A DNA stretch of 59,280 nt, filler included, from Dugesia japonica (taxonomy: Eukaryota): the NCBI GenBank assembly GCA_001938525.1. It is 6 parts of 6 records of this genome, joined end to end, with 100 filler letters (N's around TTAATTAATTAA, not from the genome) between each part and the next. Parts side by side here need not be neighbours in the genome. Positions count along the whole stretch, not along the records: positions 39,439 to 48,578 come from MQRL01642017.1; 5 more parts are not named here. The stretch is one strand, 5' to 3'. Made by a program: the position numbers and the translations under genes. The notes under the pieces were generated by a model. That model did no database searches. It saw only the letters and a list, made by a program, of their open reading frames with translations, and was not told the origin of the DNA. Below, one piece after another: positions 42,501 to 44,070 of this stretch (position 1 is its first letter; the number at the start of each line of letters is the position of its first letter).

Positions 42501-44070
42501 TTTCCTACAAAAGATGAGACAGCTCAAACAGTAGCAAAACTTTAAGTCGAAAAAATTATATATAAATATGGAGCGCCGAGAAAATTGTTATCAGATAGAG
42601 AAAAGAGTTTCCTCAATGAAGTTATACAACGAGTAACCAATATGTTTGATATTAAAAAAATAAATACAACCGCTTATCTTCCACAAACAGATGGTTTAGT
42701 TGAGAGATTTAACAGCACATTATGTAATAGGTTAGCAGTCTTCGTGAACAAACATCAAAATGATTGGGATCTATTTATTAAACCAACACTTTTTATACAT
42801 AATACAACTAAAAATGAAGCTACAGGATATTCATCTTTTTATCTTATGTATTTGAGACAAAATCACATGCCAATAGACATAACATTTGAACCAGTTGTAT
42901 CACAATATATGGACAATCCAGATTATGTTACAAAAATGCAGGAAAGATTACAAGAGGTATACAAACAAGCAAATTTAAAAGTAAAATTTAAGCAAGAACA
43001 ATATAAAGATTATTATGATAAAAAAGCTAAAGAACATAACTTTAAAGTAGGAGATAAAGTAAGAATAAAGACACCAGTCACACAAAAGGGACTAACAAAT
43101 AAATTAGCAAGGCCTTACAAAGGTCCATATGAAATAGTGAAAACAACTCCTACAAATTTACATGTAATAAAAAACAAAAAAGATGATCCTATGATTGTAG
43201 CAGTTAACAGATGCAAATTAGCAGAAACAGAAATTGAACCGAAAAAACGACATAAGTATAGTCTTCGATCAGGATCACAAAACACACTACCAATCTTTGC
43301 AATAACCTTATTAACAATAACTACGATGAGTGAAGCTCAATTAGTAGAAACACATGGTTCTACTTACATAACAAGAATAATTTATCCAAATAAAATTATA
43401 CTCAAAGTACCAGAAGATATGAAGAATATAATACATATTTCTGCGCACATATGGGATGACCCAAAAGCGTACAGAGGAATGGATCAGGTAGAAATAAGAA
43501 GATTAAAAGCTAATACGACATACAAACTCTGGATATGGGTGAAAAGAGATAAATACGGGGTAGTAGAACATCATATATTTACTACACTGCCCAAGGAACA
43601 AAAGCAAGAAAGGTTGAAGACAACAAAATCACCAACACAAACACAGTATATAAAAATTCTGACAAGGCAAAGAAAAGAAAATACAATCAAAGCCCAAACA
43701 GTCACAAACAAAGACACAACATAAAAATTTAAGTACATTCACAGTACAAATAGAACCAATCATCTCTTCACAAAAGTCACAGATAAAGACACAGTATAGA
43801 ACTATGTCAATCAAATCACAAATAAAGACGACTATAAAAGTACAATATAGAACTATTCTGACAAAACAAAACAAGTTAAATACAATTCAACCACAAACAG
43901 AAATAAATATTCCTCAAACTACAAGTTAAATAAAAAATGAATTTCTACAAAAAGATCCAATCATTTTAAATAGTAACAGAAATGTGAATTATCAACAATT
44001 AAGACATAAAATCCTGCAGATGTGGGTTACAACAACAATAAAACCATTTGATATAAAAATATTACATCAC
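39512..44070 (+). mobile_element. Large Ty3/Gypsy element copy B (5'-truncated): PR - RT - RH - IN - signal peptide - FN3-like - T/Q/K-rich stalk
   Basis: LIDTGAVC; ORFs 40136-41278 (RT), 41564-42274 (RH, TDASG), 42207-42545 and 42585-43724 (IN plus extension). Collinear with copy A. Confidence 0.9.
43287..43592 (+). CDS. Post-integrase signal peptide plus fibronectin type III-like domain, in frame with integrase
   Basis: LPIFAITLLTITTMSEA|QL... then IIYPNKIILKVP...QVEIRRLKANTTYKLWIWV...HIFTTLP, matching the FN3 'I..L.P.T.Y.V.V....F.T.P' pattern. Confidence 0.55.

Follow-up and report, generated by a model that had tools for sequence, protein, structure and literature searches.

A predicted FN3-like surface module in frame behind the integrase of decayed Ty3/gypsy elements in Dugesia japonica

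The window analysed here, a stretch of 59,280 nucleotides (filler included) from Dugesia japonica assembly GCA_001938525.1, is AT-rich, gapped eukaryotic DNA that is rich in decayed Ty3/gypsy elements. Scaffold joins of 100 bases each (44 N, 12 bases, 44 N) interrupt it five times, at 9388-9487, 20004-20103, 28749-28848, 39339-39438 and 48579-48678, across which the order is uncertain, including that of the sequence upstream of copy B. Two elements of one family, copy A on the minus strand (~19300 to 12906) and copy B on the plus strand (from 39558 up to the gap that starts at 44071), face each other and share 73-85 % nucleotide identity. Translations, Pfam and Pol homologues gave the pol order protease, RT, RNase H, integrase, which identifies the family as Ty3/gypsy LTR retrotransposons. 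Long direct repeats flanking copy A or copy B were not found, both copies being cut by gaps or insertions. The features on which the following discussion is based are:

12484..12930, minus strand: fragment of a third, diverged element with integrase tail, YSLRS, signal-like segment and ectodomain start (tblastn, hydropathy)
12906..13759, minus strand: copy A end of the integrase, followed by the signal segment (13036-12974) and the first strands of FN3, broken off at 12906 (nucleotide comparison, translation, dN/dS)
16860..18160, minus strand: copy A env, a broken, C-terminally truncated gB/Monjiviricetes-type protein with its own signal segment (PF24664, E 3.2e-12, 1.7e-4 and 0.0028)
39633..42545, plus strand: broken copy B pol, from protease through RT and RNase H to the zinc finger and the first half of the core of the integrase (translation, weak Pfam protease match, 73-85 % nucleotide identity to copy A)
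42546..43274, plus strand: second half of the integrase core and C-terminal domain with GPY and a basic YSLRS end (weak Pfam matches to rve_3, MLVIN_C and SH3_Tf2-1; 216 Pol matches; dN/dS 0.08 against copy A)
43275..43337, plus strand: predicted internal signal peptide (hydropathy; dN/dS 0.29 against copy A; same position in eight relatives)
43371..43586, plus strand: predicted FN3-like seven-strand domain (AlphaFold2, Foldseek, VIA-align Z 8.8 to fibronectin, Atlas, motif)
43602..44070, plus strand: Thr/Lys/Asn-rich spacer, 40 residues of it in the ORF and the rest stop-broken until the gap; no anchor or tail seen
44071..44152, no strand: assembly gap of 82 N; the sequence downstream is not a continuation of the module

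Further decayed gypsy-type elements lie at 29000-31500, 31900-35200, 38100-39200, 51800-55700 and 10850-12450 (minus strand). The latter two are inverted relatives of about 80 % identity, and their integrase ends without a membrane module. A 727-nt direct duplication (31873-32599 and 32650-33376, 98.9 %) around a 50-N gap is likely an assembly artefact.

Copy A shows the order gag CCHC knuckle (~19000-19050), env, protease, RT, RNase H and integrase, and is the only element of the window in which we encountered a gB/class III env between gag and pol. The upstream fusogen postulated by an earlier sequence-only reading of this DNA is found in copy A, but not upstream of copy B, where a scaffold gap and an unrelated element are located. 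Between gag and env of copy A, at 18220-18520 on the minus strand, a stop-broken frame carries a GGW motif reminiscent of the BH2 region of Bcl-2, at the position where Burro elements have a BCL2-like domain. By eye, the copy A env resembles the Smed_errantivirus_3 row in the supplement of PMC13524379.

In copy B, stops, frame changes and N runs have damaged the pol gene, and the open frame at 42546-43724, stop to stop, turned out to be the tail of this broken pol and not a gene in its own right, since it is preceded by the stop at 42543-42545 and by a frame change near 42180-42274. As the sequence-only reading had stated, this frame continues past GPY (43122) and YSLRS (43257-43271) into a hydrophobic segment. 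The segment follows a basic region, has its hydrophobic core at 43287-43322 and ends in the proposed cleavage-like S-E-A, with Q as the next residue (43329-43340). Its best Kyte-Doolittle 12-mer (2.15 at 43287) was equalled near the start of the extension in 60 of 5000 shuffles of the extension; all signal-peptide and transmembrane (TM) calls reported here are based on hydropathy. Comparison of copy B with copy A gave a dN/dS of 0.08 over the 237 codons of the integrase, 0.29 over the 24 codons of the signal segment (Fisher p ~0.01, from rounded counts) and 0.95 over the first 21 codons past the signal. The segment was said to be conserved in character and not in sequence; the former holds, whereas the latter goes too far, as copy A retains 58 % amino acid identity over these 24 codons. 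The paralog was also recovered at 12484-12930 (minus strand), with a YSLRS and a hydrophobic segment of its own (12-mer 2.6). The nearest methionine ahead of the signal in copy B is an isoleucine in copy A, which favours read-through as part of the polyprotein.

The approximately 80 residues that follow the signal are predicted to fold into a seven-strand sandwich, featuring an L-x3-T-x-Y motif and one N-glycosylation sequon (43512). Among five single-sequence AlphaFold2 models of 43341-43601, one was confident (pLDDT 81) while the other four reached 40-48. The top Foldseek rows were mostly FN3 domains (best E 8.3e-4), VIA-align ranked fibronectin first (Z 8.8, rmsd 3.0, 85 aligned residues) ahead of rows at Z <=7.6 that include non-FN3 sandwiches, Atlas returned fn3 clusters at 0.90, which is a weak rating, and BFVD gave generic FN3 matches only. 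The FN3-like pattern noticed earlier is thus supported by the predicted sandwich and the Foldseek matches, but not by Pfam, as no fn3 (PF00041) match at E 0.5 was obtained in the window domain or in nine relatives. Against a profile of the relatives' repeats described below, the domain scored 5.6 bits, a value reached by 2 of 300 shuffles; among 927 six-frame segments it ranked below the top 8, and blastp gave no link to these repeats. It is consequently tied to them by position, motif and predicted fold, and barely by sequence. Searches with the extension gave 0 of 143 candidates among long proteins and, in a set of 1.84 billion representatives, one weak match (E 3.4e-6) to an FN3-repeat protein of likely bacterial origin. 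Viral contigs yielded no relative, and metagenome contigs one 1283-nt integrase fragment without context. A search of proteins of 47-566 residues with the ectodomain alignment as query gave 0 of 2714 candidates. Stand-alone or host forms may still exist.

The spacer behind this domain had been described as a mucin-like stalk, which overstates its composition: its 40 residues within the ORF comprise 10 threonines and 7 lysines, with only one serine and one proline. The T/Q/K-rich imperfect repeats claimed for it could not be reproduced as an array there by Tandem Repeats Finder. Eight stops interrupt the frame between 43602 and the gap. The expected downstream TM helix is absent before the gap, and the sole hydrophobic run after it (44255-44320) was rejected as an anchor, being a low-complexity Ile/Tyr stretch within an unrelated ORF. 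Neither a TM helix nor a PDZ motif survives in the window, where only signal and ectodomain remain, and the whole protein could not be made from the broken copy B.

Beyond the gap, 44153-46419 (plus strand) holds long ORFs. One of them, at 45029-45442, resembles a REX4/ISG20-type exonuclease when judged by eye, but Pfam and PDB sequence searches gave no match; another, at 45955-46419, is strongly acidic. A C3HC4 RING finger split by one stop follows at 46690-47100 (plus strand; Pfam halves at E 0.1 and 0.006), preceded by an intron-like GT..AG stretch. This finger, which we take to resemble RNF10, looks like a host gene fragment or the cargo of another element.

The missing half of the module becomes visible in intact Pol relatives, known from protein sequences alone. 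The copy B ORF was compared with proteins of 687-2000 residues, a length range that favours fused forms, and the best 120 of 216 matches were considered. In a quick tree of the best 60 of these matches and both window copies (62 rows), these two copies nest with the ten nearest clusters at an SH-aLRT support of 100. A TM helix after the integrase is predicted by hydropathy in 8 of these 10 clusters, compared with 0 of the 110 further matches listed. In all eight, the integrase is continued in frame by a net-basic stretch and a hydrophobic signal-like segment. The ectodomain that follows is 125-396 residues long and is joined to the predicted TM helix by a juxtamembrane spacer, of which Ser, Thr and Pro make up 20-30 %; a tail of 24-131 residues completes the protein. 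The tail ends in the class I PDZ-binding motif [ST]-x-[VIL] in seven of the eight, as opposed to 1 of the 110 further matches listed; counted as five lineages, four carry the motif (binomial p ~5e-6).

Taking one protein per lineage, 26 sequons were observed in the ectodomains where 11.4 are expected, a number reached in 0 of 1000 shuffles, while the integrases contain 12 for an expected 9.6 (229 of 1000 shuffles). Seven of the eight relatives harbour one to three repeats with an L-x-x-x-x-x-Y strand motif. Leave-group-out profiles placed 13 of 15 such repeats above all 300 shuffles, after four motif matches overlapping the signal, the TM helix or neighbouring repeats had been excluded. The ectodomain of relative P0005 is predicted to form three tandem FN3 sandwiches, with a Foldseek E of 6.5e-10 to fibronectin FN10-12, and the Atlas matches of P0009 are fn3 clusters. 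Both the sequence and the number of domains are hypervariable among the ectodomains; P0011 has a different ectodomain without the FN3 motif and ends in EIV. Extra aspartic-protease-like domains follow the integrase in P0002, P0003 and P0008.

In run X9, which is of uncertain nature, the summed contig depth at 80 % identity was 264-2734 across pol and signal and fell, after 43334, to 15-71 across FN3 domain and stalk, although two contigs with an identity of about 85 % do cover the FN3 domain. Three RNA runs (17, 305 and 18 reads, mostly less than 90 % alike) reach the signal segment, and at 80 % identity none of their reads lies over the FN3 domain or stalk. This pattern agrees with a shared signal followed by an ectodomain that is swappable or diverges fast, and is not a demonstration of the domain's expression. 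In run X21, first mates over 39560-43334 were mostly on the plus strand, which would mean antisense RNA from related copies if the library is of the common stranded type.

Based on these findings, we are highly confident of the architecture itself, and the earlier proposal of a separate surface protein is well supported by the type I module in 8 of the 10 nearest relatives, the predicted FN3 folds and the sequon excess. Our leading reading goes further: the copy B stretch may be a decayed remnant, comprising the front half, of a predicted type I surface glycoprotein with an accessory role, which a clade of Ty3/gypsy elements encodes in frame behind the integrase and which would likely be anchored to PDZ scaffolds at cell contacts and aid cell-to-cell spread. 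We see the chances of this reading as evenly balanced, a judgement that covers the whole chain including adhesion at PDZ-organised contacts. A ribosome completing Pol would meet the internal signal, signal peptidase would release a glycosylated type I protein into the secretory route, and the element's protease would trim the integrase. The tail could then bind PDZ proteins of the Dlg/Scribble/MAGI type, and the variable FN3 array might provide adhesive contacts at which particles with a gB-type Env pass from cell to cell. This role at contacts is favoured by analogy with HTLV-1 Env and Dlg. A secreted immune decoy, the other function suggested earlier, is unlikely, as the intact forms are anchored and keep the C-terminal PDZ-binding motif.

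Alternatively, the module might be packed into particles as a virion attachment protein that binds a receptor for the gB-type fusogen, giving the two-component envelope suggested earlier. Herpesviruses offer the analogy, with gD and gH acting alongside gB. Copy A, in which a gB-type env occurs together with the beginning of the module, would agree with this idea, as would the hypervariable ectodomains, since variation in sequence and domain number is frequent in receptor-binding proteins. Yet no env was seen in the relatives with the intact module, which were examined as Pol proteins, and the conserved PDZ motif rather suggests a role in the producer cell. Furthermore, relative P0007 has another signal-FN3-TM unit in residues 1-230, where its Pol ORF begins, just before the protease; the repeat in this unit is a member of the same family (21.6 bits, 0 of 300 shuffles), and the unit resembles a mobile accessory element more than a fixed partner of Env. 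We regard the attachment protein as unlikely.

Similarly improbable is a receptor mimic, in which an FN3 receptor copy that is anchored but dead in signalling would sequester a ligand, tie up PDZ polarity scaffolds or block superinfection, with no direct part in transfer. The cytokine receptors IL-22R1 and IFNAR2 are among the top Foldseek matches of the copy B domain, but these matches are to the generic FN3 fold at 10-19 % identity, and adhesion and matrix proteins score equally. Burro elements are described with host-control domains in PMC6431247, and ankyrin repeats adjoin the module in relatives, in P0003 between integrase and membrane module; still, the strong divergence between subfamilies fits poorly with a single fixed host ligand.

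The accessory protein could also be produced by another route, namely from a spliced or internally initiated subgenomic RNA, in which case the in-frame join would be incidental. The env of Drosophila gypsy is made in this way. Relative P0010 has a methionine shortly ahead of its signal segment, and the Pol ORFs of P0004 and P0008 end without the module. Since eight relatives and both window copies have an open frame across the junction of integrase and module, and neither an RNA joint nor a read pile-up was found at the signal, where coverage is thin, we consider this route less probable still. Finally, a neutral passenger, for instance a fragment captured from the host, or an A-rich 3' sequence, with an open frame and an FN3-like appearance arisen by chance, is very improbable and for the clade largely refuted: the weak sequence link of the window domain to the relatives, the dN/dS of about 1 directly past the signal and the low read depth over the domain would suit it, but the same module order recurs in five diverged lineages with the PDZ motif kept, and both the sequon excess and the constrained signal segment speak against it.

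A broader version of our leading reading would make the module the clade's second, non-fusogenic envelope-type glycoprotein, a swappable and hypervariable FN3 adhesin, released from the Pol C-terminus, that either builds a PDZ-anchored "virological synapse" or acts as attachment partner of the gB fusogen. We put this forward as a doubtful, tentative possibility; if true, a Ty3/gypsy element would have an entry system of two parts resembling that of herpesviruses. Envelope-bearing Ty3/gypsy elements are described as gag-pol plus one fusogen. In addition, such a module would mean that the C-terminus of an integrase also serves as the beginning of a protein of the secretory pathway, and that a retroelement has kept FN3 domains too diverged for Pfam to recognise. 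How envelope-bearing elements outside Drosophila move between cells is stated to be unknown in PMC13524379. With its PDZ-binding tail, a second conserved surface glycoprotein would offer a testable handle on this movement, with planarians as the probable test system, where RNAi and imaging are routine.

While the element type is known, we found no description of a post-integrase FN3 module in the literature at title and abstract level; an earlier mention in the Burro discovery paper, its supplements, Repbase or figures is possible. PMC13524379 describes the order gag-env-pol in errantiviruses from flatworms, nematodes and bryozoans, and those GAG-ENV-POL errantiviruses with an HSV/gB-type Env, such as Smed_errantivirus_3, share gene order and Env class with copy A, as far as the available part of PMC13524379 describes them. 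The post-integrase domain named there is the chromodomain; the word "fibronectin" is absent from the main text of PMC13524379, and both "fibronectin" and "fn3" are absent from its seven supplements.

Burro (GYPSM1) of dugesiid planarians likewise carries its env, of mononegavirus-like type, between gag and protease as in copy A, here in frame within the polyprotein, which requires a topology similar to that of the post-integrase module. According to PMC6431247, Burro exceeds 30 kb and encodes a single polyprotein of ~4,900 amino acids with many captured domains, among them BIR/MATH domains, a BCL2-like domain ahead of env and ankyrin repeats, the latter also present in relative P0003. No FN3 domain, second membrane protein or PDZ tail is named after the integrase in this part of PMC6431247.

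Host FN3 adhesion proteins and cytokine receptors such as fibronectin, Dscam, LAR, CD45, IL-22R1 and IFNAR share the predicted fold, and their type I layout is that of the relatives, but Pfam and protein searches detected no sequence homology between them and the module, so that a donor gene cannot be named. The closest functional parallel to the relatives' tail, and our working model for it, is HTLV-1 Env, a retroviral surface glycoprotein with a PDZ-binding tail whose ESSL motif binds Dlg at cell contacts, as reported in the available part of PMC3185783. In HTLV-1 this motif is carried by the fusogen itself, whereas here it is found on a separate, non-fusogenic protein with predicted FN3 domains.
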